Source: Chloroflexota bacterium (GTDB taxonomy: Bacteria; Chloroflexota; Dehalococcoidia; GIF9; AB-539-J10). Taken from it: a stretch of DNA of 58,989 nucleotides. Positions 39,509 to 52,435 of this stretch are shown here, piece after piece (position 1 is the stretch's first letter; each line of letters opens with the position of its first letter). The stretch lies in assembly GCA_048621695.1 (NCBI GenBank), contig JBMCVZ010000001.1, positions 1-58,989 on the forward strand. Reading direction: 5' to 3'. A program made the position numbers and the translations under genes. Below the pieces are notes generated by a model. That model was not told the DNA's origin, ran no database searches, and saw only the letters and a program-made list of their open reading frames with translations.

Positions 39509-42500
39509 ATGACTGAAGAAGGCATAATTACATTGAATATTGATGGTAAGAACATAAAAGCTAGGCAGGGGCAGACGATATTGGAGGCTGCCAGAAACTC
39601 AGGAATCTACATTCCCAGTCTTTGTTACTATCCCGGTATAAAACCGCTACCCCAAGTAATTCCTGATGCGGCTTGCCAGCTTTGCGTAGTGGAGACAAAC
39701 AACAATATCGTGCTCTCCTGTGTTACTCCCGTCTCTGAGCGAATGGTAGTTAAGACAAAGACGCCAAAGTTACAAGAACTACAGCAGAAGAAATTGCTTG
39801 TCATTTTAGCTAGACAACCTGCAGATATCTGCTTTGAAAAAAGAAACTGCGAACTTCAGAAAGCCATCGACTATATCGGTTTAAAGGAGATACCTGTCCA
39901 TGTTTCCAGGTCTTTAGCTACTTTAGAGGATAATCCTTTCTTCGCTCGTGATTCAAGCTTTTGCATTTTATGCCATCGCTGTCTTCGGGTCTGCGATGAG
40001 ATAAGAGGACTAGGGGTGATCGAACCTGCCTTTCCATGTTACAAAGCTTGTCCTGCTGGTATAGACGTTCCTCGTTATATTCGCCTTATTGCCAAAGGGA
40101 GACCAAGCGCTGCCTTAGCAGTGATAAGAGAAAAGGTTCCCTTTCCTGCTGTATTGGGTAGAGTATGCGCTGCCCCATGCCAGAAGGAATGTCGGCGTGG
40201 CCTAGACGTGGATGAAACATTACAAATAAGAATTCTTAAGCGCTTTGCCGCTGACAATGGTGATGATAGCTGGAAAAAACAAGCAAAGTCCCTTCCACCA
40301 ACTGGCAAAAGCATAGCGGTAGTTGGGGCGGGACCAGCAGGGCTTACCTGTGCTTATTATCTGGCCAAGCTAGGACACAAGGTAACTGTATTTGAAGCTC
40401 TCCCCGAGCCCGGTGGAATGATGAGAGTGGGGATTCCGGAATATCGCCTTCCGCGGAATATACTCAGCGACGAGATTCGAGAAATTGAGATGGCGGGTGT
40501 GGAAATCAGACTGAACACTCGGGTCGAGTCCTTAGACTCCCTTTTTGAACAGGGATACCAGGCGATTTTTCTAGCCATCGGTGCTCACCAAGAAATGAAG
40601 CTGGGGGTAGAAGGAGAAGGCGTGCTTGGGGTAATTGGGTGTGTTGAATTCCTTCGCCGGTTTAATCTTGGAGAGGAAGTGGAGCTGGGGGATAGGGTAG
40701 GGGTGATTGGTGGAGGAAACGTTGCCCTAGATTCTGCACGCACTGTTATACGGCTTGGCGCTAGGAGAGTGACCATTTTCTACCGCAGGACAAAGAACGA
40801 GATGCCAGCCCAACTAGAAGAGATAGAACAAGCATTGGAGGAGGGAGTTGAAATCATCTTTCTCGTTGCTCCTTCGAAGATTTTCAGAGAGAATGATGAC
40901 CTGAAGCTGGAGTTGATCCGCATGGAGTTAGGAGAGCCTGATGCTAGTGGCAGACGCCGACCTGTTCCGATTAAGGGCACTGAGTTTATCGCTGAGCTTG
41001 ATACTTTAATTGCTGCCATTGGCGAACAACCAGATGTTCCTGCGGGCTTCCAGGTCGAAGTAAAGCGGGGGAATATTTTGAAGGTCAATGAAGACCTAAG
41101 CACGAGTCGAGAGGGCGTTTTTGCTGGAGGTGATTGTGAGAGTGGCCCAGCTTTGGTCATCGATGCTATTGCAGCGGGAAGAAAGGCAGCTCAGTCCATT
41201 GACCGTTATCTTGGTGGCAGAGGGGATATTACAGAGCATCTGGTGCCTGCCGAGGAGGCAATGGCCTGGTTAGAAGATATATCTACAGGAGAAAAATTGG
41301 CTACCATTTCTTATCTTGCGCCACAGACACGCATTGATGGTCTTTCTGAAGTGGAGCAGGGAATGAATTGGGAGACAGCCGTTGCCGAAGCTCAACGCTG
41401 CCTCCAGTGCCATGCTATTGCCCCCTTAAATGAGCGAACACTTCGCGAGGTCGACTGCAAATTCTGCGGTGCCTGCGTTGATTCTTGTCCTACTAATGCC
41501 CTTGTTGATTTGGCTACTCGCGGGCTGGCGGAGCCTGACCGTGTAGTTACCACAATTTGTCCCTATTGTGGTGTTGGCTGCCAGTTAAATCTTCTGGTCA
41601 AGGATGAAAAGATAATAGCTTCCACCCCTGATCCAGATGGTGTGGCTAATCATGGGCAGGCATGTGTTAAAGGTCGCTTTGGCATCGCCGAGTTCGTCCA
41701 TCATCCCGAGAGGCTGACCACTCCCTTGATAAGAAAGAATGGGGAGTTGAAAGAGGCATCCTGGGAAGAAGCACTGGAACTGGTGGCTAAAAAATTGAAG
41801 GGTTACACACCAGCTGAAGTAGGCATCATCGCCTCAGCAAAGTGTACCAATGAAGAAAACTATGTCATGCAAAAATTCGCTCGAGCAGTGCTGGGTACTA
41901 ATAATGTTGATCACTGCGCTCGGCTATGTCATGCCCCTACAGTGGCTGGCCTGGTGCAGAGCTTTGGCAGTGGAGCAATGACTAATTCAATCAATGAAAT
42001 TGGCGACGCCGCTTGTATTTTGGCTATCGGCACTAATACTACAGAAGATCATCCTGTGATTGGGCTTGAGGTGAAGAGAGCAGTAAATAATGGCGGGAAG
42101 CTCATCGTGGCCAACCCCCGCCAGATTGACCTGTGCCACTTCGCCAGCCTCTGGCTGCAGCATAATCCCGGCACAGATGTCGCCCTGCTCATGGGGATGA
42201 TGCGGGTTATAGTAGATGAGGGATTATTGGACTCGGCCTTTATCAAGGATAGATGTGAGAACTTCGATGCTTTCAAGGAGTCGCTAAAAGATTTTGACCT
42301 TGATACTGCTGAGCAAATTACTGGCGTGCCACAGGACAAAATAATCGAAGCTGCCCGTATTTTCGCCACTAATAGTCCTGCCACCATACTTTATTCCATG
42401 GGCATTACTCAGCATTCTCACGGCACTGACAACGTGCTGGCTACCGCCAATCTGGCAATGCTCACCGGCAATATGGGCAAGCCTTCAACCGGGGTCAATC

Positions 42501-43558
42501 CACTCAGAGGTCAGAACAATGTACAGGGTGCCTGCGATATGGGTGCCTTGCCTAATGTCTATCCTGGCTATCAATCAGTGGCCGATCCAGCTATTAGAGA
42601 GAAATTCGAAGCTGCTTGGGGCTTCGGATTACCACCATCCCCAGGGTTAACCTTAGTTGAGATTTTCGATGCCGCATACCGCAAAGAGATAAAGGCGATA
42701 TATCTGGTTGGTGAGAACCCGGCATTAAGTGACCCTGATACCCAGCATGTCTGGGAGGCGCTGTCTCGGCTTGATTTCTTTGTTGTTCAGGATATATTCC
42801 TTTCTGAGACAGCAAGACTTGCCCATGTTGTCTTGCCAGCGGCGAGTTTTGCTGAAAAGGATGGCACCTTCACTAACACCGAACGCCGGGTACAGAGAGT
42901 GCGGAAAGCTATCCAGCCCGTAGGCGATTCCAAACCTGACTGGTGGACCGTCTGCCAGTTGGCCAAAAAGTTGGATGCCAAGGGCTTTGACTACAGCCAC
43001 CCATCTGACATAATGGAGGAAATTCGCAATCTTACGCCCAGCTATGGTGGGATAGGTTATCAGAGATTAGAAAATGGTGGACTTCAGTGGCCTTGTCCTA
43101 TTGATGACCATCCAGGCACGCCGATATTACACACGAATATTTTTGTTAAAGGGAAGGGTAGATTCATACCACTAAAATACATCCCTCCTGAAGAGGTGCC
43201 AGATGAAAACTATCCTCTGATTCTCACCACAGGACGCAGCCTGTATCATTTCCACACTGGCACCATGACCCGCAAGGTGGCTGGACTTAACATTATAGAG
43301 CCTGAAGGGGTAGTGGAAATCAGCCCTCAGGATGCTTCGAAACTCGGTATAGATCAAGGGGGCAAGGTAAAAGTTATCTCTCGGCGTGGTGAAGTTATCA
43401 CTAAAGCTAAAATAACTGAAACAATGCCACCCGGCTTAGTGTTCATGGCTTTCCATTTCGCCGAAAGTGCTGCTAATATCCTCACCAATCCCAAGCTCGA
43501 CCCGGTGTCCAAAATTCCCGAGCTCAAAGTCTCAGCAGTCAAAGTTGAGAAACTGTAG
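39509..43558 (+). CDS. Formate dehydrogenase alpha subunit (Mo/W-bis-MGD, Cys-type) with a GltD/SfrB-like FAD/NAD(P)H module inserted in its N-terminal ferredoxin region
   Basis: Residues 1-170 carry a [2Fe-2S] site (SLCYYPG..CQLC..C) and one 4Fe-4S motif (CILCHRCLRVC). Residues ~177-570 are GltD-like (CPAGIDVPRYIRLI, VAVVGAGPAGLTCAYYLAKLGHKVTVFEALPEPGGMMRVGIPEYRLP, VIGGGNVALDSA, VFAGGD). These are followed by CKFCGACVDSCP, CPYCGVGCQL, the active-site region HCARLCHAPT, and a standard FdhA end (KVSAVKVEKL). Confidence 0.85.
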   Translation: MTEEGIITLNIDGKNIKARQGQTILEAARNSGIYIPSLCYYPGIKPLPQVIPDAACQLCVVETNNNIVLSCVTPVSERMVVKTKTPKLQELQQKKLLVILARQPADICFEKRNCELQKAIDYIGLKEIPVHVSRSLATLEDNPFFARDSSFCILCHRCLRVCDEIRGLGVIEPAFPCYKACPAGIDVPRYIRLIAKGRPSAALAVIREKVPFPAVLGRVCAAPCQKECRRGLDVDETLQIRILKRFAADNGDDSWKKQAKSLPPTGKSIAVVGAGPAGLTCAYYLAKLGHKVTVFEALPEPGGMMRVGIPEYRLPRNILSDEIREIEMAGVEIRLNTRVESLDSLFEQGYQAIFLAIGAHQEMKLGVEGEGVLGVIGCVEFLRRFNLGEEVELGDRVGVIGGGNVALDSARTVIRLGARRVTIFYRRTKNEMPAQLEEIEQALEEGVEIIFLVAPSKIFRENDDLKLELIRMELGEPDASGRRRPVPIKGTEFIAELDTLIAAIGEQPDVPAGFQVEVKRGNILKVNEDLSTSREGVFAGGDCESGPALVIDAIAAGRKAAQSIDRYLGGRGDITEHLVPAEEAMAWLEDISTGEKLATISYLAPQTRIDGLSEVEQGMNWETAVAEAQRCLQCHAIAPLNERTLREVDCKFCGACVDSCPTNALVDLATRGLAEPDRVVTTICPYCGVGCQLNLLVKDEKIIASTPDPDGVANHGQACVKGRFGIAEFVHHPERLTTPLIRKNGELKEASWEEALELVAKKLKGYTPAEVGIIASAKCTNEENYVMQKFARAVLGTNNVDHCARLCHAPTVAGLVQSFGSGAMTNSINEIGDAACILAIGTNTTEDHPVIGLEVKRAVNNGGKLIVANPRQIDLCHFASLWLQHNPGTDVALLMGMMRVIVDEGLLDSAFIKDRCENFDAFKESLKDFDLDTAEQITGVPQDKIIEAARIFATNSPATILYSMGITQHSHGTDNVLATANLAMLTGNMGKPSTGVNPLRGQNNVQGACDMGALPNVYPGYQSVADPAIREKFEAAWGFGLPPSPGLTLVEIFDAAYRKEIKAIYLVGENPALSDPDTQHVWEALSRLDFFVVQDIFLSETARLAHVVLPAASFAEKDGTFTNTERRVQRVRKAIQPVGDSKPDWWTVCQLAKKLDAKGFDYSHPSDIMEEIRNLTPSYGGIGYQRLENGGLQWPCPIDDHPGTPILHTNIFVKGKGRFIPLKYIPPEEVPDENYPLILTTGRSLYHFHTGTMTRKVAGLNIIEPEGVVEISPQDASKLGIDQGGKVKVISRRGEVITKAKITETMPPGLVFMAFHFAESAANILTNPKLDPVSKIPELKVSAVKVEKL

Positions 43559-43596: not shown

Positions 43597-45123
43597 TCAG
43601 GTGTAGCAGAAGGGAAACAGCCTCTTAGGCTGCTCTAAACTATTGCTCTGATTATAAAGCTTTGTCGGCGTTTTGATTATTATTTGGGTGCCCTTTCCTA
43701 TTTGGGAGCTAACTTCAAGTTCTCCACCTATTAATTGGGCTCGTTCTACCATACCGGTGAGCCCCAACTTACCTCGACTGGCAAAATCACTTAGCTGCCG
43801 GGGAAGCTCAAAACCCTTGCCATTATCGCTAATCGTTATTCTGACCTCGTTTTCCCGGTATTCCATCGTAATGCTGGCTTGGGATGCCTCAGAATGGCGG
43901 TGAATATTATTTAAGGCTTCTTGAACAATGCGGAACAGAACTAGCTGTGTTTCTGGAGGGAGTGGTGGGACGGCATCTGCTTCGACCTGGATTTCGATTC
44001 CACTAAAGTTATGTGTTTCCTCAGCCAGCCATTTGATAGCCGCCAGCAAACCTAAATCATCCAGAATGCCTGGCCTGAGAGCCTGAGCATAGTGCTTAAT
44101 GCTTTGATAGGTTTGCTGGGACAGTTCATGTAGTTTCTCCAACTCATTTCTCAGCTCTTGAGGCAAATATCTCTCAGATTTAGCGGCAAGGTTATCTACG
44201 CCATGTGTTAGAAGCAATATTTGTTGAGAGGTGTCGTCATGAAGTTCACGAGCAAGGCGTTTCCGTTCTTCCTCCTGAGCTTGCAGAACCTGCCTGAGGT
44301 AGAACTGCACATTATCCTGTAATTTTCTCTCTTCGGTTATATCACGAGCCATATTCTGAAAAGCTTTGGGCTTGCCATCGCTAACAATAAGACGAGTGGA
44401 TAATTGAAAGATTGCTTCAGAGCCATCTTTTTTGATTGCCCGCTGCTCATAGCGGTGTTCCATAGCTTCGCCTCTCAATAGCCTATCTCTCACCTGTCTC
44501 GCTAAAGGCACTGCCTGTGGGGTAAGAAACTCGCGGACATTTTTGCCTGTAAATTCTGAAACCGAGTAGCCCGTGAGCCTTTCGCAGGCTTTATTGGCCA
44601 AAATGATATTGCCCTCTATATCGTGAATCCAGATAGCATCGCTGGCGTTAGCAAATAATTCCTCATAGTTTTGTTGCGACAATTCCAGATTCTTTATAGC
44701 CTCTTCTAATCTACCTTGCCGCTGTTTATCTTGATGGTAGGCTGCCATAAGTGCAATGGCTAAAGCGCCAATAACAAGGCTAGCAAGGCTTTCCAAGAGC
44801 GCATCTCCTAGATTAGGGCAAATCAAAAAGGTGCGAAGTAACATTACCAAAGCGCTTGATAGCCATACTGCGGCGCCCCCGATTATTCCCAGTGTCCAGC
44901 CTGCATATACTACTAACAAGAGATAAAGAAGTCGCTCCAAACTGTGCCGTAAAAGCTCTAGATCTGCGGGCACCGAGACCTCACCCAAGAAAGGTATTTG
45001 AAAAAGGAGCTGCGTAAAATGAGATATGGTTAGGAGAATGAACAAAACGATAATAATCCAGAGGTGTGGGTTTCCTAACCTCGGAGTTTGTCCTCGGTAT
45101 TCTCTAAGGTAACTAATCCCCAT
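43597..45123 (-). CDS. Sensor histidine kinase (membrane N-terminus, PAS, HisKA_3 H-box, HATPase)
   Basis: It has 4-5 TM helices, a PAS-like region (NASDAIWIHDIEGNIILANKACERLTGY), the H-box ERKRLARELHDDTSQQI, and N/G boxes (EALNNIHRH, DNGKGF, GLTGM). The start overlaps the regulator gene by 49 nt, so an internal alternative start is possible. Confidence 0.85.
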   Translation of the reverse strand: MGISYLREYRGQTPRLGNPHLWIIIVLFILLTISHFTQLLFQIPFLGEVSVPADLELLRHSLERLLYLLLVVYAGWTLGIIGGAAVWLSSALVMLLRTFLICPNLGDALLESLASLVIGALAIALMAAYHQDKQRQGRLEEAIKNLELSQQNYEELFANASDAIWIHDIEGNIILANKACERLTGYSVSEFTGKNVREFLTPQAVPLARQVRDRLLRGEAMEHRYEQRAIKKDGSEAIFQLSTRLIVSDGKPKAFQNMARDITEERKLQDNVQFYLRQVLQAQEEERKRLARELHDDTSQQILLLTHGVDNLAAKSERYLPQELRNELEKLHELSQQTYQSIKHYAQALRPGILDDLGLLAAIKWLAEETHNFSGIEIQVEADAVPPLPPETQLVLFRIVQEALNNIHRHSEASQASITMEYRENEVRITISDNGKGFELPRQLSDFASRGKLGLTGMVERAQLIGGELEVSSQIGKGTQIIIKTPTKLYNQSNSLEQPKRLFPFCYT

Positions 45124-45758
45124 TGTAATCCTTTGACTATTGCCTCACTGCGTGAGGCAACATTCAATTTGTTGAAGATATTAGTTAGGTGAGCTTTGAT
45201 AGTGCGCTGGCTGAGAAACAATTTTTCTGCTATCTCTTTGTTGCTCATTCCCGACGTGACTAAATTAAGTATCTCTGATTCCCGCTCACTCAGTAGGTCC
45301 GACGCCTTGTGCTTCCCAGCTGGCGCTGTTGTAGCTCGCTTTAGCAATTTGGCGATAATTTTGGGGTGGAGCACTGATTCACCTGATCTTATGGCCCGAA
45401 TAGCCCCAACCAAATCACGCCCCCTAGCGCTTTTCAGCAGATAGCCGGCAGCTCCGGCATCAAGTAATCCCAGTACATACTCGTCATCATCATAAGCAGT
45501 GAGGACTAGAATGGCTGTGTCAGGAGCAGACTCTTTGATCTTTCTGGTGGCTTCAATTCCATTGAGTTTGGGCATGACAATGTCCATCACCGCTACATTG
45601 GGCTTCAATTCTGAGGCAAACTTGACTGCTTCCTCGCCATCACCGACCTCAGCCACAACTTCTATGTCCTCCTCACCCTCTAGTGCTCGATGTAGGGCTT
45701 CACGCACCAAAGGGTGGTCGTCAGCAATCAAGACTGTTAACTTGTCTCTTGTTCCCAA
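45075..45758 (-). CDS. NarL/LuxR-family response regulator
   Basis: The receiver domain is VLIADDHPLVREAL...VAVMDIVMPKLNG. The C-terminal HTH is LSERESEILNLVTSGMSNKEIAEKLFLSQRTIKAHLTNIFNKL. Confidence 0.9.
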   Translation of the reverse strand: MGTRDKLTVLIADDHPLVREALHRALEGEEDIEVVAEVGDGEEAVKFASELKPNVAVMDIVMPKLNGIEATRKIKESAPDTAILVLTAYDDDEYVLGLLDAGAAGYLLKSARGRDLVGAIRAIRSGESVLHPKIIAKLLKRATTAPAGKHKASDLLSERESEILNLVTSGMSNKEIAEKLFLSQRTIKAHLTNIFNKLNVASRSEAIVKGLQWGLVTLENTEDKLRG

Positions 45759-45925
45759 TTTTCCAACTTGTCGAACCCATTATAAGCTCATGTGCACTTT
45801 AGGGCAAGCAGACTGCCCTTTTGGACGTAACTAAAATACTACTGCCAACTGTAACCTATGGACGATGGCTGACAATCAAGCAATTGCTAGACTTAGTTTA
45901 AAGCAAGAGGAAAGGATGGATAAGG

Positions 45926-46210
45926 ATGACTAAATGGATTCCAGTAACAAATGAAGAGGTTAAGGAAGGGGTTGTGTCAGAGAGAAGGGATTTACTCGCT
46001 GTTTTAAAGAGAGCGGCTAACGAATCGGAATTCTTGGCGCGATTAGCTGAGAATCCTCACGAGGCTCTAAAAGAGTATTACTCTTTGACTAACGAGGAGA
46101 GAGCTGCCTTAGCCAGCGGGGACATCAGGAAAATAGAATCATGGGTAGGTAAGCTAGATAAAGAGCTAGCTACCTGGCTGTGGTGCCGGCTATCTCAAGA
46201 GAAATGGTGA
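45926..46210 (+). CDS. Small helical protein, free-standing paralog of the C-terminal extension of the downstream FdhA
   Basis: It is 94 aa. Residues ~23-94 (LLAVLKRAANESEFLARLAENPHEALKEYYSLTNEERAALASGDIRKIESWVGKLDKELATWLWCRLSQEKW) align along their full length with the last 70 aa of the 48674..51637 product. The RBS is AAGGA. Confidence 0.6.
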   Translation: MTKWIPVTNEEVKEGVVSERRDLLAVLKRAANESEFLARLAENPHEALKEYYSLTNEERAALASGDIRKIESWVGKLDKELATWLWCRLSQEKW

Positions 46211-46225
46211 GTAGTGAGGTATGAA

Positions 46226-46735
46226 ATGGTGAATCATTCGGCAGTAGAAGACACTCAGGCGCTACTTGGGCGAGAGACGGTGATGCAAGAGCGCCTAAGC
46301 GAAATTCTATCCTCCTACGATGGTAAGAAAGAGGAGCTTATTCCTATCTTGCAGCAAGCGCAGCAGGCTTTTGGTTATCTGCCAGAGACGATAATGAAAA
46401 AAACAGCTAAATTCCTCAAACTGCCAGAAAGCACCGTCTTTGGGGTGGGCACATTTTATGCTCAATTCAAGCTTGTTCCAACAGGGAGAAACATTGTCAG
46501 GGTTTGTCGCGGCACTGCCTGCCATGTACGTGGCAGTGCACAGATACTTGGCGAAATAGAAAAGCAATTAGGCATTAGTGCAGGTGAAACTACGCCAGAT
46601 CTTGAATATTCGCTAGAGACGATAGCCTGCTTTGGTTCGTGCGCACTGGCACCAGTTGTGGTTACTAACAGCAAGGTGCATGGGAGGATGACGACTTCCA
46701 AGGCAAGGGATATGTTAAATAAGGAGGAACAGTGA
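46226..46735 (+). CDS. NuoE/HydC-like [2Fe-2S] subunit (copy 2)
   Basis: The motifs are LIPILQQAQQAFGYLPETIMKKTA, VGTFYAQFKL, CRGTACHVRGS and CFGSCALAPV. The start is uncertain among 46214, 46226 and 46283. Confidence 0.85.
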   Translation: MVNHSAVEDTQALLGRETVMQERLSEILSSYDGKKEELIPILQQAQQAFGYLPETIMKKTAKFLKLPESTVFGVGTFYAQFKLVPTGRNIVRVCRGTACHVRGSAQILGEIEKQLGISAGETTPDLEYSLETIACFGSCALAPVVVTNSKVHGRMTTSKARDMLNKEEQ

Positions 46736-48642
46736 GTTTCGAAGAAATCAAGAGCCAAGCTATACTGCAATGGGAAGCAATGCAGCAAAGCGAGAAAACT
46801 CGTATTTTAATTGGCATGGGAACTTGTGGGCGAGCAGCTGGTGCTGACGATATACTTGATGTTCTTAACCAAGAGTTAGCCCAGCAACATATTCAAGCTG
46901 ATATTCTTAAGGTTGGTTGCATCGGTCTTTGTTATGCTGAGCCCTTGATCGAAGTAATAAAACCAGGCATGCCTGGTGTCTTTTACGGCGATCTAACCCC
47001 CGAAATTATAGCTGAGATCGTCAAGGACTACTTAATTGACGGCAACCCTCGTCCTGAGTTAGCTTTGGGCACTCGTGGAGAAGGGACATTAGATGGTATT
47101 CCCAGGCTTTTTGAATTGCCAGTACTTAAACCTCAAGTGCGTATCTCTTTGCGCAATTGTGGAAATATCGATCCTGAAAGTATAGACCATTATATTGCTA
47201 ATGGTGGTTATGAAGGTCTGGCCAAGGCGTTGAGAATGAACCCCCAGGAAGTGATTGATGAGATAAGAAAATCGGGGTTGCGAGGTCGTGGTGGGGCTGG
47301 CTTTCCAACAGGAGTTAAATGGCAGTTCTGCCACGATGCTCCCGGTAATATCAAATATGTGATATGTAATGCTGATGAGGGGGACCCAGGGGCATTTATG
47401 GATCGAGCGCTTCTTGAAGGTGATCCGCATGCTGTGTTGGAAGGAATGCTCATTGGTGCTTATGCTATAGGTGCGACTGAAGGGTACATTTATATCCGAG
47501 CCGAGTATCCGCTAGCAATCCAAAGGTTACGGACTGCTATTAAGCAAATGGAGGAATATGGGTTATTAGGTGACGATATTATGGGCTCTGGCTTTAGATT
47601 CCATATCAAAATAAAAGAAGGAGCTGGGGCCTTTGTCTGTGGTGAGGAGACAGCGTTGCTGGCTTCTATTGAGGGCAAGAGGGGAATGCCACGGTCTCGT
47701 CCTCCTTTCCCTGCTGTCTCTGGATTATGGGGCAAGCCTACTAACATCAATAATGTGGAGACTTGGAGCAATGTCTCAGCTATTTTCCCGAAAGGTGCCG
47801 AATGGTATGCCGGCTACGGTACAGATAAGAGCAAGGGAACCAAGAACTTTTCTTTGGCAGGCAAAATTGTTCGCACTGGGCTTATGGAAGTCCCAATGGG
47901 AATTAGCTTGCGTGAGATAGTATATGACATAGGTGGGGGCATTCCTGGAGGGAAACGCCTTAAAGCAATCCAGACCGGAGGACCATCGGGTGGTTTCATA
48001 CCCGAGCGTTTGGTAGACCTGCCAGTCGATTACGAATCTCTGGCCGAGGCAGGGTCGATTATGGGCTCAGGTGGGATGGTAGTAATAGATGAGGGTACTT
48101 GTATGGTTGATATGACAAAGTTCTTCCTCACCTTTACCCAAGCTGAGTCATGTGGCAAATGCATACCATGCCGGTGGGGCAATAAACAAATCCTGGACAT
48201 ACTAGAGGATATAAGCAAAGGAAGAGGCAGGTCCGACGATATTGGATTGCTTCAAGAATTGGCGGAATCCGTCAAAGATGGTTCTTTATGCGGTTTAGGA
48301 CAAACTGCTCCTAACCCGGTTCTTACTAGTATCCGTTACTTCCGAGACGAGTATGAAGAGCACATCTTTGAAAAAAGCTGCTCGGCGCTTCACTGCCAAG
48401 CTCTTATATCTTACTACATTCTTCCTGACAAATGTAATGGCTGTATGATTTGTGCCAGAAACTGTCCTGTCCAAGCAATTGAGGGCAGCAAACGGATGGT
48501 GCATGTTATTGATCAGCATAAGTGCACAAAGTGTGGGAATTGCTTAGATGTCTGTCCATCTAAGTTCAGTGCGGTAGTTAAAGTTGCCGGGAAGCCTTTG
48601 GATATCCCTGAGAAGCCTATGCCTATAGCTGCCGAGGCTTAA
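46732..48642 (+). CDS. NuoF/HydB-like NAD(P)H-binding flavoprotein (copy 2)
   Basis: It has the same architecture and motifs as 31354..33267 (GLRGRGGAGFPT, CNADEGDPGAFMDR, ESCGKCIPCRWG, 2 terminal ferredoxin motifs). It overlaps the nuoE-like stop by 4 nt. Confidence 0.9.
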   Translation: MSFEEIKSQAILQWEAMQQSEKTRILIGMGTCGRAAGADDILDVLNQELAQQHIQADILKVGCIGLCYAEPLIEVIKPGMPGVFYGDLTPEIIAEIVKDYLIDGNPRPELALGTRGEGTLDGIPRLFELPVLKPQVRISLRNCGNIDPESIDHYIANGGYEGLAKALRMNPQEVIDEIRKSGLRGRGGAGFPTGVKWQFCHDAPGNIKYVICNADEGDPGAFMDRALLEGDPHAVLEGMLIGAYAIGATEGYIYIRAEYPLAIQRLRTAIKQMEEYGLLGDDIMGSGFRFHIKIKEGAGAFVCGEETALLASIEGKRGMPRSRPPFPAVSGLWGKPTNINNVETWSNVSAIFPKGAEWYAGYGTDKSKGTKNFSLAGKIVRTGLMEVPMGISLREIVYDIGGGIPGGKRLKAIQTGGPSGGFIPERLVDLPVDYESLAEAGSIMGSGGMVVIDEGTCMVDMTKFFLTFTQAESCGKCIPCRWGNKQILDILEDISKGRGRSDDIGLLQELAESVKDGSLCGLGQTAPNPVLTSIRYFRDEYEEHIFEKSCSALHCQALISYYILPDKCNGCMICARNCPVQAIEGSKRMVHVIDQHKCTKCGNCLDVCPSKFSAVVKVAGKPLDIPEKPMPIAAEA

Positions 48643-48673
48643 GTATTTTGTTAGTATTAAGGAAGGTGCCACG

Positions 48674-51637
48674 ATGAGTGCAATCGTTACAACCAAGGTT
48701 GAAGAAAAGGACATAGCCACCATCAGGCTGACTATTAATGAACAGGGAGTCGAAGCGGAAAAGGGAGTCACTGTACTTGAGGCAGCACTGAATGCTGGTA
48801 TCTATATTCCCACGCTATGTTATGATCCTGACCTCAAGCCCTATGGAGGTTGTCGGCTCTGCACGGTTGAGATTGAAGGAATGCGGGGCTTGGTCAGCTC
48901 GTGTACCACGCCAGCAACCGATGGTATGGTGGTACACACCGAGACAGAACGAGTAAATCGGTCACGCCGTATCACCATGGAGCTTATTATCGCTAATCAC
49001 CACGGCGATTGTCTAACCTGTGCCAAAAACCAAGACTGTGAGCTACTTAAGATTGCTCGATATCTAGGCATGGAACAAGAGCATATTGACCGTCTGAGAA
49101 AGGGCACTCAAGTGCTTCCTATGGATAAAAGCCATCCGGCATTTATCCGTGACCCGAATAAGTGTATTCTTTGTGGCAGGTGCGTGCGAGCGTGCCATGA
49201 AATAGCTGTCGTTGGCGCCATTGACATGGCCTTCCGGGGCAATTCTGCAAAGGTAGCCACCTTTGGTGATAAACCGATTGTCGAGTCTATCTGCAAGTCC
49301 TGCGGGGAATGTGTTGCCCGATGTCCTACAGGAGCATTGATACCCAAATGGGAAAAATTACCTGCTAAAGAAGTTAAAACCATCTGTCCCTACTGTGGAG
49401 TCGGCTGCTCCATCTACTTAGGTGTTCGTGATAATAAGATTGTTTCCGTGCGAGGTGACCCCGAGGGTCCAACTAACAAGGGCAGCCTGTGCGTTAAAGG
49501 GCGCTGGGGATACGATTTTGTTAGTCATCCAGAAAGATTAACAGCGCCCCTTATCCGATTACCAGGCGTTGCCCGGCAAGCAGGTCACAACGGGAAAGTG
49601 CAAGAAATCTTCCGTGAAGCTAGCTGGGATGAGGCTCTTAAGCTGGTGGCAAACAAGCTACTTGAACTCAAGCATGGTCACGGAGCAGATAGTATCGCTA
49701 CCTTAAGCTCAGCTAAGTGCACCAATGAAGATAACTATGCTATGCAGAAATTCGTTCGCTCTGTGATTGGGACTAATAACATTGACCATTGTGCTCGGTT
49801 ATGCCATGCCTCTACTGTCGTTGGGGGTATCGCTGCCTTCGGTCAAGGGGCAATGAGTAATTCTTATTCCGATTTTGAGAAGACCGGACTTTTCTTCGTC
49901 ATCGGCTCTAACACTACGGAATGCCATCCAGTTATTGGCGCAATAATTAAGAGAAGAGTCAAGTTTGACGGAGCTAAGCTTATTGTGGCTGACCCGCGCT
50001 CTACGGAGCTTGGCGAATATGCCACTGCCAAGCTTGTACACAAGCCAGGGACAGATGTTGCCCTTATCAACGGACTAATGCATGTTATCATTAGAGATGG
50101 CCTTGAGGATAGGGAATTTATCCGAAAGCGCACTGAAGGTTTTGAGGATATGCGCCAGCTTGTGGAACGATTTACTCCTGACGTGGTAGAGGCCATAACG
50201 GGGGTTCCCAAAGCTGATTTGGAAGCGGCCGCCCACCTTTTCGGTGCGGCGAAAAGCGCTTGTATCCTCTACGGAATGGGTATCACCCAGCATACCACCG
50301 GCACAGATAATGTTAAAAGTGTGGCAAATTTGCTGCTACTGACCGGCAATATTGGCAGGGAAGGCACGGGTTTCAGCCCTCTTCGGGGCCAAAACAATGT
50401 GCAGGGTGCTTGCGATATGGGTGCCTTACCTAACGTCTATCCCGGCTATCAAAAGGTTGATGATCCTGCTGTGAGAATGAAGTTCGAAACTGCTTGGGGA
50501 GCTAAATTGAGCGACCATACGGGGCTGACAGTTACCGAAGTGGCTAATGCTATACTCAGGGGAGACATTAAAGGACTCTATGTCATGGGTGAGAATCCTA
50601 TGTTAAGTGAACCTCACCTTGAGCATACCAGGCAGGCAATGGAGAAACTCGAATTCCTGGTAGTGCAAGATATCTTTCTCTCCGAGACTGCTTGGTTAGC
50701 TGACGTTGTTTTCCCAGCTGCTGCCTACGCTGAAAAAGATGGAAGCTTTACCAATACTGAGAGGCGAGTTCAGAGAATAAGGCGGGCCCTTATGCCGCCC
50801 GGGGAAGCAAAGGCTGACTGGGAGATTATATCTGCTTTGGCGAAAAAGATGGAAAAACCGTTTGACTACCAGAGTGCCAGCCAGATTACGGAAGAAATTG
50901 CCTCCCTGACTCCTATTTATGGTGGTGTCCTTTTCGACCGCCTTGACAATGGCAGTTTGCAGTGGCCTTGCTTGGATACCGCACACCCTGGAACGAAATT
51001 CCTTTACCAGGATGGGTTCGCACGGGGACGGGGCAAATTCCATGCTGTAGACTACGCACCACCGGCAGAATCGATATCCAAAGGTTTTCCGCTGGTTCTC
51101 ACTACAGGACGGGTGCTGGAACATTGGCACACCGGCACCATGAGTCGTCGCTCTAACGTACTCAGTGAACTTAACCCTAACGGTGTAGTTGAAATGAGCC
51201 CCAGCGATGCATTGAAGCTTGGCCTTATTGAGGGAGATTCAATAGTAGTTGCCTCAGAGAGGGGTCGATTGGAGGCACCATTGCATATTACGGAAGAGCT
51301 ACCTCCTGGAGTCGTCTTTATGCCCTTCCACTGGCATGAGGCGGCAGTGAATATCCTTACCAATGATGCTCTTGACCCAGTGGCTAAGATTCCGGAGTAC
51401 AAAGTCTCTGCTGTAAATGCTGTATTAGCGGTGCTCGATAGAGCTGCCCAGGATAATGCCTTTCTGGCTCGACTAGCGGAAAATCCCGCAGGGGCTCTGA
51501 AAGAGTACGAACTGACAGCGGAAGAAAAAGCTGCGCTGATGAGCGGAGACATACGCAAGATAGAATCATGGCTGGGCAAGCTGGATGAGCGCCTTAAGAC
51601 GTGGCTTATGCTGCGATTATCTCAAGAGAAATGGTAG
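48674..51637 (+). CDS. fdhA: Formate dehydrogenase alpha subunit (NuoG-like N-terminus, Mo/W-bis-MGD, Cys-type) with a 70-aa C-terminal extension
   Basis: It has a [2Fe-2S] site (TLCYDP..CRLC), a His-ligated cluster motif (HHGDCLTCAKNQDC), 2x4Fe-4S, CPYCGVGCS, and the active site HCARLCHAST. The normal end ..KVSAVNAV is followed by an extra domain encoded at 51425-51634. Confidence 0.9.
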   Translation: MSAIVTTKVEEKDIATIRLTINEQGVEAEKGVTVLEAALNAGIYIPTLCYDPDLKPYGGCRLCTVEIEGMRGLVSSCTTPATDGMVVHTETERVNRSRRITMELIIANHHGDCLTCAKNQDCELLKIARYLGMEQEHIDRLRKGTQVLPMDKSHPAFIRDPNKCILCGRCVRACHEIAVVGAIDMAFRGNSAKVATFGDKPIVESICKSCGECVARCPTGALIPKWEKLPAKEVKTICPYCGVGCSIYLGVRDNKIVSVRGDPEGPTNKGSLCVKGRWGYDFVSHPERLTAPLIRLPGVARQAGHNGKVQEIFREASWDEALKLVANKLLELKHGHGADSIATLSSAKCTNEDNYAMQKFVRSVIGTNNIDHCARLCHASTVVGGIAAFGQGAMSNSYSDFEKTGLFFVIGSNTTECHPVIGAIIKRRVKFDGAKLIVADPRSTELGEYATAKLVHKPGTDVALINGLMHVIIRDGLEDREFIRKRTEGFEDMRQLVERFTPDVVEAITGVPKADLEAAAHLFGAAKSACILYGMGITQHTTGTDNVKSVANLLLLTGNIGREGTGFSPLRGQNNVQGACDMGALPNVYPGYQKVDDPAVRMKFETAWGAKLSDHTGLTVTEVANAILRGDIKGLYVMGENPMLSEPHLEHTRQAMEKLEFLVVQDIFLSETAWLADVVFPAAAYAEKDGSFTNTERRVQRIRRALMPPGEAKADWEIISALAKKMEKPFDYQSASQITEEIASLTPIYGGVLFDRLDNGSLQWPCLDTAHPGTKFLYQDGFARGRGKFHAVDYAPPAESISKGFPLVLTTGRVLEHWHTGTMSRRSNVLSELNPNGVVEMSPSDALKLGLIEGDSIVVASERGRLEAPLHITEELPPGVVFMPFHWHEAAVNILTNDALDPVAKIPEYKVSAVNAVLAVLDRAAQDNAFLARLAENPAGALKEYELTAEEKAALMSGDIRKIESWLGKLDERLKTWLMLRLSQEKW

Positions 51638-51652
51638 CTCCTACTATCATTT

Positions 51653-52261
51653 CTATTCTCTCGACCATCTCCTCTCGGCTGCCAGCTTCCTTGCCCTGCC
51701 CAGATCAGCCTGGCTATTTACGTTGAAAAAGCTTAAGTGCTCAGGGTCAAATCTATTGATCTCGTCCTCTTCAACGTATTTCACCTTTACCTTGCTATAA
51801 AGCTTTCTAATCCTCTGTTCATCTTGCTCAAGTAGCCCGCGGATGGGAATTAAACAATTCTTGGAATAAACCGCGCAAAGGGGCTCCAATTTATTCTTTG
51901 TCCGCGGAACAACGACATCAAATATAGAACAAACTCGGGCCATATATTCAAGCAAGCCAACGCTTAGAAATGGTGTATCACAGCCAACAACGATAGCCCG
52001 CGAACCAGATGAGGCCATTAGACCCGAGTAAATGCCCGTAAGCGGACCCTTTCCAGGATAAATATCGGCCACTGTTTTTGTCCTTACAGCCGAGGAGCAG
52101 GGAATTGCTTCGCCATGAGCAGTCGCTATGATGATTTCTGTGCTGACTGTAGCAAGGCGGTCGATCACCCATTGGATAAGAGTCTTACCGTCAATAACTT
52201 GAAGCGCCTTGCTTTGACCGAGCCTCGAACTTTTACCACCGGCGAGAATAATAGAAGTCAT
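51653..52261 (-). CDS. mobA: Molybdenum cofactor guanylyltransferase MobA
   Basis: The motif is MTSIILAGGKSSRLGQSKAL...DGKTLIQWVIDRL. The ATG at 52261 is preferred over the TTG at 52267. It is convergent with fdhA. Confidence 0.85.
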   Translation of the reverse strand: MTSIILAGGKSSRLGQSKALQVIDGKTLIQWVIDRLATVSTEIIIATAHGEAIPCSSAVRTKTVADIYPGKGPLTGIYSGLMASSGSRAIVVGCDTPFLSVGLLEYMARVCSIFDVVVPRTKNKLEPLCAVYSKNCLIPIRGLLEQDEQRIRKLYSKVKVKYVEEDEINRFDPEHLSFFNVNSQADLGRARKLAAERRWSRE

Positions 52262-52435
52262 ATCCAAAACGCCTGAAATACAAAGCTACGCTAGCATACT
52301 GGACAGCATCAGGCAAGCCGTTGTTGCTTGCGTAATCTTTCCTTCTCTATTAGAATACTAACATAGGCACATGAAAAACCTTTACTGCAGGTTTCTAGCC
52401 AAATCGAGATAGGTAGTTTTCCATAACAGACCATC

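Follow-up and report, generated by a model that had tools for sequence, protein, structure and literature searches.

Free and FdhA-fused copies of one helical module, a putative docking pair in formate operons of Dehalococcoidia

Soluble NAD-linked formate dehydrogenases (FDH) and FocA formate channels play a central role in anaerobic C1 metabolism and are under study for CO2 reduction. In Rhodobacter capsulatus, the small helical subunit FdsD is bound to FdsA. Transporters or enzymes can also be co-sensed with two-component systems, as for DcuS with DctA/DcuB and BceS with BceAB. Here we analyse a stretch of 58,989 nucleotides (the window; contig JBMCVZ010000001.1) from an uncultured member of the Dehalococcoidia (Chloroflexota), in which a module of about 70 residues is found twice in one formate dehydrogenase operon. 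One copy is a stand-alone gene opening the operon (F, for free) and the other is fused to the C-terminus of FdhA (T, for tail), whose gene closes it.

The closest described relative of the module is Os1348 of Pseudomonas sp. Os17 (PDB 6LK7), the only studied member of its family. Os1348 is a six-helix monomer that forms a stable homodimer via helices 1, 4, 5 and 6; it was proposed, without proof, as a bacteriocin precursor and has been linked to antibiotic activity (PMC7726476). A literature search for 'Os1348' gave solely this Pseudomonas paper, and we found no paper on NHLP and formate dehydrogenase or tying the family to formate metabolism. What is already known is thus the domain family, one structure and the automatic NCBI name of the free gene. 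The family has so far been linked only to a putative peptide-antibiotic precursor, and the pair described here suggests that formate metabolism has an accessory, for docking or regulation, that was not described before. The reading that we favour, with some reserve, is a homotypic docking pair in which F would bind T and which would serve formate enzymes as an accessory or regulatory component.

Two classes of one helical module

The 94-aa free protein and residues 918-987 of FdhA share 53 identical positions out of 71 (75%; BLASTP, E 4e-34), with one gap of a single residue. The end-to-end alignment made by hand in an earlier, sequence-only reading of the window is therefore upheld, together with its coordinates and sequences. 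The free protein is composed of a variable N-terminal stretch of ~20 residues and a 72-aa module ending in WLWCRLSQEKW. In FdhA, the module starts three residues after the conserved core end KIPEYKVSAV, hence without linker, and RLSQEKW followed by the stop is the C-terminus of both copies. The second FdhA of the window (39509-43558) ends in KVSAVKVEKL without any extension, as can be seen in its translation and as had been reported.

The 3′ ends of the two copies have in common an 18-nt string, TATCTCAAGAGAAATGGT, and 19 of the final 21 coding nucleotides are identical, in agreement with the near identity noticed at first reading. This string is what could make the small open reading frame (ORF) appear as a recent, non-functional partial copy of the fdhA 3′ end. 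However, over the last 40 codons only 80 of 120 nucleotides are shared, third positions match in 18 of 40 cases and the synonymous divergence (dS) between the two copies is saturated, so that the short identity is no sign of recent copying.

Conservation of the free gene leads to the same conclusion. A search at E <= 1e-3 gave more than 1255 homologues of the free protein, all counted as intact, the commonest length being 94 aa among the 120 closest listed; some are already named 'Os1348 family NHLP clan protein' by NCBI. The median pairwise dN/dS amounts to 0.10-0.12 in the free module, against 0.07-0.08 in the tails of FdhA and 0.11-0.16 in those of FocA (see below), and the ATG start of the free gene and its GAAAGGAGG-type ribosome-binding site align across relatives. 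The free gene is thus real and under purifying selection.

In a phylogeny of 144 modules, FdhA tails are monophyletic (support 100/81), as are FocA tails (100/96), and these two clades are sisters (96/94). Free modules fall outside the tail clades and group by organism, following the species tree, and not by cargo; the free modules of one metagenome-assembled genome (MAG JAWOGR01), which carries both an FDH operon (L008) and a FocA operon (L070), are identical in sequence. These separate clades define two old classes, F and T, the F class typically ending in WLWCRLSQEKW and having an extra residue in the EYYxLT motif. To judge from the tree, the T tag has passed between formate dehydrogenase and formate channel. 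The pair accordingly appears as an old, selected feature and not as a recent duplicate; a non-functional or pseudogenised copy of the fdhA 3′ end, which the sequence-only reading had kept in view, is refuted.

Family membership was examined by profile searches with the module. NCBIfam model NF038399 ('Os1348 family NHLP clan protein'; 63 positions, cut-off 40 bits) is matched above its cut-off by both copies, with 43.0 bits for the free protein (residues 22-81) and 56.0 bits for the FdhA tail; FocA tails of relatives score 32-34 bits, under the cut-off. The module copies stay below the cut-offs of PF14407 (Frankia_peptide; 21.8-23.1 vs 48 bits), PF07746 (LigA; 16.5 vs 25.3 bits) and TIGR04509 (16.5 vs 34 bits). 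The guess of an NHLP- or LigA-like helical module was therefore right as to the NHLP clan, with LigA sub-threshold.

The best PDB relative in a module-profile search is again 6LK7 (E 0.014), followed by LigA-domain precursors of ribosomally synthesized and post-translationally modified peptides (RiPPs) such as SonA. An AlphaFold2 (AF2) model of the free protein predicts six helices over residues 16-91 (mean pLDDT 69, ~77 in the module) and a disordered segment over residues 1-17 (pLDDT <50). Searched by Foldseek, this model of moderate quality ranks 6LK7 first (E 1.0, TM 0.42/0.58, 30% identity over the 56 columns of the fold alignment) and SonA second, all fold matches being non-significant (E about 1). 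A model of full-length FdhA, built with 54 homologues, has a mean pLDDT of 59.6 and a pTM of 0.46, too poor to place the tail.

Membership in NF038399, the weak PF14407 and TIGR04509 matches and the antibiotic activity linked to Os1348 (PMC7726476) would be in line with the free gene encoding a RiPP or bacteriocin precursor, a role proposed for Os1348 and for further peptides of the NHLP clan. Precursors of the NHLP type begin with a leader domain, and their core peptide makes up the C-terminus, in most cases behind a Gly-Gly type cleavage site. Here the domain lies at the very C-terminus, with a near-invariant QEKW followed by the stop, which leaves no core peptide behind it and only the variable N-terminal stretch outside the domain. 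No maturase, protease or export genes are present in the operon: neighbours are a histidine kinase, a response regulator, NuoE, NuoF, FdhA and MobA in the window, and FocA, Acs and SatP in relatives. Moreover, this domain also belongs to an enzyme of 987 aa and to a membrane channel, and strong purifying selection acts on the whole domain and not on a leader. We consider a precursor role highly improbable and have rejected it.

Operon contexts, fusions and the regulator link

Gene context was surveyed in 76 loci from species-representative genomes. The order found in the window (Type A) is a divergent kinase and regulator pair, the free gene, nuoE, nuoF, sometimes fused to a GltD-like module, and tailed fdhA. 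A survey of FdhA C-termini and neighbouring small ORFs, proposed in the sequence-only reading, gave a tail in 268 FdhA homologues and an F gene directly upstream of nuoE in 38/38 tailed-fdhA operons with enough upstream sequence (a called ORF in 37, a tblastn match in L052). Five fdhA genes are untailed (L055, L065, L070, L078), and the three with a readable start region have no adjoining free gene. In some genomes, two tandem free module genes precede nuoE (L058:648-1609; G529, G584, G676); those of L058 are recent duplicates.

In Type B loci, kinase, regulator and free genes are followed by a FocA/FNT formate channel gene (PF01226), the module being carried by the cytoplasmic C-terminus of FocA after a linker of ~50 residues. 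Of 18 FocA genes with F before them, 17 carry the T tail, and the one that does not (L075) has many frameshifts. In the close relatives L063 and L070, the FocA gene stands between the regulator gene and mobA-tsaD, the place taken in the window by nuoEF-fdhA. Most genomes have either FdhA::T or FocA::T and MAG JAWOGR01 has both; bridging of FDH to FocA through the tails is a possibility. On a complete Chloroflexota chromosome (CP070642.1), the gene of a periplasmic formate dehydrogenase with a twin-arginine (Tat) signal and an in-frame TGA directly follows tailed FocA (L068:14069-15823).

The pair thus recurs across the class, with formate dehydrogenases as well as with formate channels. In an even sample of 401 Dehalococcoidia genomes (222 genera), the module was found in 35 genomes (24 genera), nearly always as one or two F plus one T; F or T alone were located at contig ends. 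Among five other genomes of the window genus, two have the pair and three lack it, which makes it an accessory trait. Weaker module-like matches in other Chloroflexota (30-55 bits) were set aside as other NHLP-clan domains without the QEKW end, many of them at the N-terminus of long low-complexity proteins.

F is also found away from T. Nine free genes sit before acs-satP acetate operons, and two (L006, L043) are alone with the two-component system. Seven of the nine form a divergent clade, in which Acs has an N-terminal receiver (REC) domain where checked (L025). Half-modules, ORFs of 63-75 aa covering the first half only (Table 1), lie between the regulator gene and CRP-acs-satP in loci that have an intact free gene further on, before tailed FocA; they resemble free modules that are in decay or have been shortened. 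F genes with no T nearby tend to drift: upstream of REC::Acs they are strongly divergent, and upstream of CRP-Acs they have shrunk to a half-module. The REC-Acs proteins (~800 aa) are an observation in their own right. Their genes (L025:7676-10087; also L026, L028, L037, L039, L041, L042) follow the divergent free module gene and precede satP, beside their own NarL-type two-component system, an arrangement that suggests direct phospho-control of a metabolic enzyme.

Beyond these operons, 304 clusters match the module at E <= 1e-3 among 1.84 billion representative proteins. The majority are small and carry the module C-terminally. Larger matches are FdhA and FocA fragments, REC-module and REC-REC-module proteins (one with the F-type ending), and proteins in which a helix-turn-helix (HTH) domain or an iron-sulfur (FeS) protein is followed by two modules. 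REC proteins of other taxa carry an F-like output module ending in WLWCRLSQEKW (P0262, P0292, P0335, P0368, P0389), and tandem modules occur within one chain in P0242 and P0247. Module-NuoE fusions were found in two lineages, P0334/P0392 and P0357. P0334 is present on 4 contigs, all <=3.5 kb and too short to show fdhA, and P0392 is 80% identical to it, which indicates that the fusion is real; L092, examined for the context of P0334, is an ordinary unfused operon.

The regulator is a constant neighbour of F. Among 63 free genes with an annotated upstream neighbour, 54 are divergent from a NarL-type regulator gene, and most of the remaining 9 follow another gene of the same operon. An alignment of 11 related intergenic regions, from FDH-type and FocA-type loci, revealed an inverted repeat, GGGCA-N7-TGCCC (45802-45818 in the window), conserved in all 11 whatever the cargo. 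A nearby ACGATGGCAG box is likewise conserved, and the region also contains the ribosome-binding site. Repeat and box are candidate binding sites for the NarL-type regulator.

This regulator link, the control region conserved regardless of cargo, F genes lying beside the two-component system without a tailed enzyme or before receiver-fused Acs, and F-like modules serving as REC-protein output domains elsewhere would all suit another explanation. F could act chiefly as a part of the adjacent two-component system or as a connector to it, for instance by binding the PAS domain of the kinase or a receiver domain, and T would then act separately, in FdhA dimerisation, in FocA gating or in titration of F as feedback. 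We hold this to be rather unlikely. T was never found without F in the same operon, F lacking a T partner tends to diverge or decay, and the fusions of the module to NuoE speak for a position within the enzyme complex. To stand first after the regulator gene is also what would be expected in an ordinary regulated operon.

The operon context raises still another role, that of an FdsD-like subunit for maturation or stabilisation of the FdhA molybdopterin (bis-MGD) site. The free protein is small and all-helical, its operon encodes an NAD-type FDH and adjoins mobA, and FdsD was not detected in five related genomes; this last result is weak and uninformative, since the control genomes gave none either and there was thus no positive control. 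On the other side, the same T is found on FocA and F heads Acs-SatP operons, neither of which has a molybdenum cofactor. No fold match includes an FdsD chain, and neither copy matches the FdsD profile PF11390 at E <= 1. The same tag on a cofactor-less channel renders such a cofactor role improbable, well below the two-component explanation. Likewise, the chaperone-like role envisaged at first reading found no support and, as a cofactor chaperone, is hard to square with the channel fusion. With no FdsD match and no paper on it, the module does not correspond to a known, annotated FDH accessory domain.

The putative F:T docking pair

In the docking reading, the two copies would be anciently diverged paralogues of a domain of six helices that docks one protein onto another (Os1348 family, NHLP clan). 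F would bind the T tail of FdhA, giving a heterodimer equivalent to the Os1348 homodimer and putting a small accessory subunit on the NuoEF-FdhA enzyme; in the sister operons, the same F would bind the T tail of a FocA-type formate channel. The pair would be part of a regulon serving the use of formate and acetate, under the control of the neighbouring NarL-type two-component system and with F almost always as its first gene, and would most likely couple the enzyme or the channel to a partner or to signalling. The data show homology, family membership, conservation, the strict occurrence of F with T, the domain fusions and the synteny; from these we infer the physical contact between F and T and its effect.

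Several observations fit such a pair: T never occurs without F in the operon, the two classes are old and separate, modules also occur in tandem, and the founding member of the family forms a homodimer. The fusion of the module at a terminus to unrelated partners (REC, HTH, FeS protein), as is commonly seen for docking or dimerisation domains, fits as well. The NuoE fusions suggest that F resides within the enzyme complex; the two-component tie, the REC fusions elsewhere and the T-less F genes suggest a signalling role, and the two are compatible with each other. Of the functions first imagined for the module, docking or oligomerisation is favoured by the pairing and fusion evidence and filament formation is without support. 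Nor is the pair specific to the FDH-NuoEF complex: the same free gene also goes with tailed channels, opens acetate operons and is linked to the two-component system.

Other points weigh against a docking pair. The AF2 monomer model is only moderate and its PDB fold matches are non-significant, and the full-length FdhA model gives no tail position. At several conserved positions the tails of FocA are unlike those of FdhA, and no compensatory change was seen, the F modules of L008 and L070 being identical despite their differing FdhA and FocA tails. Finally, the intact F genes with no T in the operon, before Acs-SatP or with the two-component system alone, imply that F must also work without T.

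A broader scheme, which we put forward tentatively and regard as doubtful, is a docking code, in which a T tag on formate enzymes and channels would be bound by free, receiver-fused or NuoE-fused F modules. If this were true, a two-component system might regulate or sense the oxidation and transport of formate directly at the protein level, beyond transcription, and a new signalling output domain would be recognised along with its matching enzyme tag.

An unrecognised, strongly conserved accessory domain pair on both FDH and FocA would be a new machine part, and a domain family regarded as 'peptide precursor-like' would gain a different role. The 70-residue tag and its 94-residue partner offer a testable handle on formate and acetate use in uncultured subsurface Dehalococcoidia, and the pair may serve as a natural heterodimerising tag.

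The window operon and described systems

Features of the operon and its surroundings are listed in Table 1. The true start of nuoE is likely the ATG at 46226, and the gene lies 3-15 nt past the stop of the free module gene. FdhA scores 840.4 bits (residues 236-915) against TIGR01591 (formate dehydrogenase alpha subunit), above the equivalog cut-off of 666, and the tail falls outside the span of this model. The N-terminal stretch of the histidine kinase has no Pfam match; it was labelled a membrane domain at first reading. The mobA-like gene is syntenic in L009-L011, L063 and L070.

The active site of FdhA (codon 377, 49802-49804) has Cys377 within CARLCHAS. In 15 related tailed fdhA genes this codon is replaced by an in-frame TGA (selenocysteine; CARL*H), and the tail is thus borne by both selenocysteine and cysteine forms. 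Gene callers split the selenocysteine form of fdhA into pieces of 376 and ~606 aa. As for NuoF, that of the window is a plain 636-aa protein, with a GltD-FdhA fusion, the untailed second FdhA, encoded adjacently; in many otherwise identical operons NuoF has ~1010-1040 aa and a C-terminal GltD-like NAD(P)H module (L006:2183-5224, L008, L010, L012, L013, L034, L038, L043, L045, L046, L048, L054, L057, L058).

Table 1. Coordinates of the operon features in the window and of ORFs and genes in related loci
Feature	Position or locus	Strand	Basis
Sensor histidine kinase: PAS, HisKA_3, HATPase	43597..45123	-	Pfam; syntenic in related loci
NarL/LuxR-type response regulator (REC + GerE), divergent from free module gene	45075..45758	-	Pfam
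Control region between divergent response-regulator and free module genes	45759..45925	no strand	
Free module gene (F-type), 94 aa	45926..46210	+	ORF and translation
nuoE-like [2Fe-2S] subunit gene	46214..46735	+	PF01257, E 1e-47
nuoF-like FMN/NAD(H) subunit, C-terminal 2x[4Fe-4S] domain	46732..48642	+	PF01512, PF10589
fdhA, 987 aa: NuoG-like N-terminus and Mo/W-bisPGD formate dehydrogenase catalytic subunit	48674..51637	+	TIGR01591, Pfam
Tail module (T-type), FdhA aa 918-987 (final 70 residues) and stop codon	51425..51637	+	
MobA-like molybdenum cofactor guanylyltransferase, convergent on fdhA	51653..52267	-	PF12804
Half-module ORFs	L060:1104-1331, L061:4274-4501, L064:4311-4508, L066:4361-4552		
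TGA-type tailed fdhA	L020, L022, L026, L027, L030-L032, L034-L036, L039, L040, L042, L050, L058		

Compared with described systems, the module is closest to Os1348. Both window copies pass the family model of which Os1348 is the founder, the free protein and Os1348 are both small, the moderate AF2 model of F predicts six helices, the number seen in Os1348, and the Os1348 homodimer fits the paired use of the module in the window; the PDB matches behind this likeness are statistically weak. In contrast to the free-plus-fused pair found here, with no modification genes nearby, Os1348 stands alone and its gene is clustered with acetyltransferase, peptidase-like and SagB-like genes. The C-terminal SQEKW is near-invariant here, whereas the final six residues of Os1348 are disordered.

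SonA, with its partner SonM (borosin; PDB 7LTC, 9CH7), has a similar small helical fold (TM 0.64-0.68 normalised to target), and the LigA-like/NHLP-type domain in SonA-SonM serves to dock one protein onto another. Its sequence similarity to the module is sub-threshold (E about 1, with the Pfam LigA profile below cut-off as given above). SonA bears a methylated core peptide, unlike the module proteins, which come with neither core peptide nor methyltransferase.

FdsD of FdsABGD (PF11390) is likewise a small helical accessory, whose gene shares an FDH operon with those of NuoE- and NuoF-like subunits. The resemblance is one of functional analogy alone, neither a sequence nor a fold match to the module having been found, and we know of no FdsD that is joined to a formate channel or a receiver domain.

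By analogy, DcuS with DctA/DcuB and BceS with BceAB resemble the present loci in the joint encoding of a metabolic protein with a sensor system. We know of no dedicated docking domain pair in such co-sensing systems. Here, unlike there, the operons have a shared putative interaction module, which in other taxa is also fused to receiver domains.

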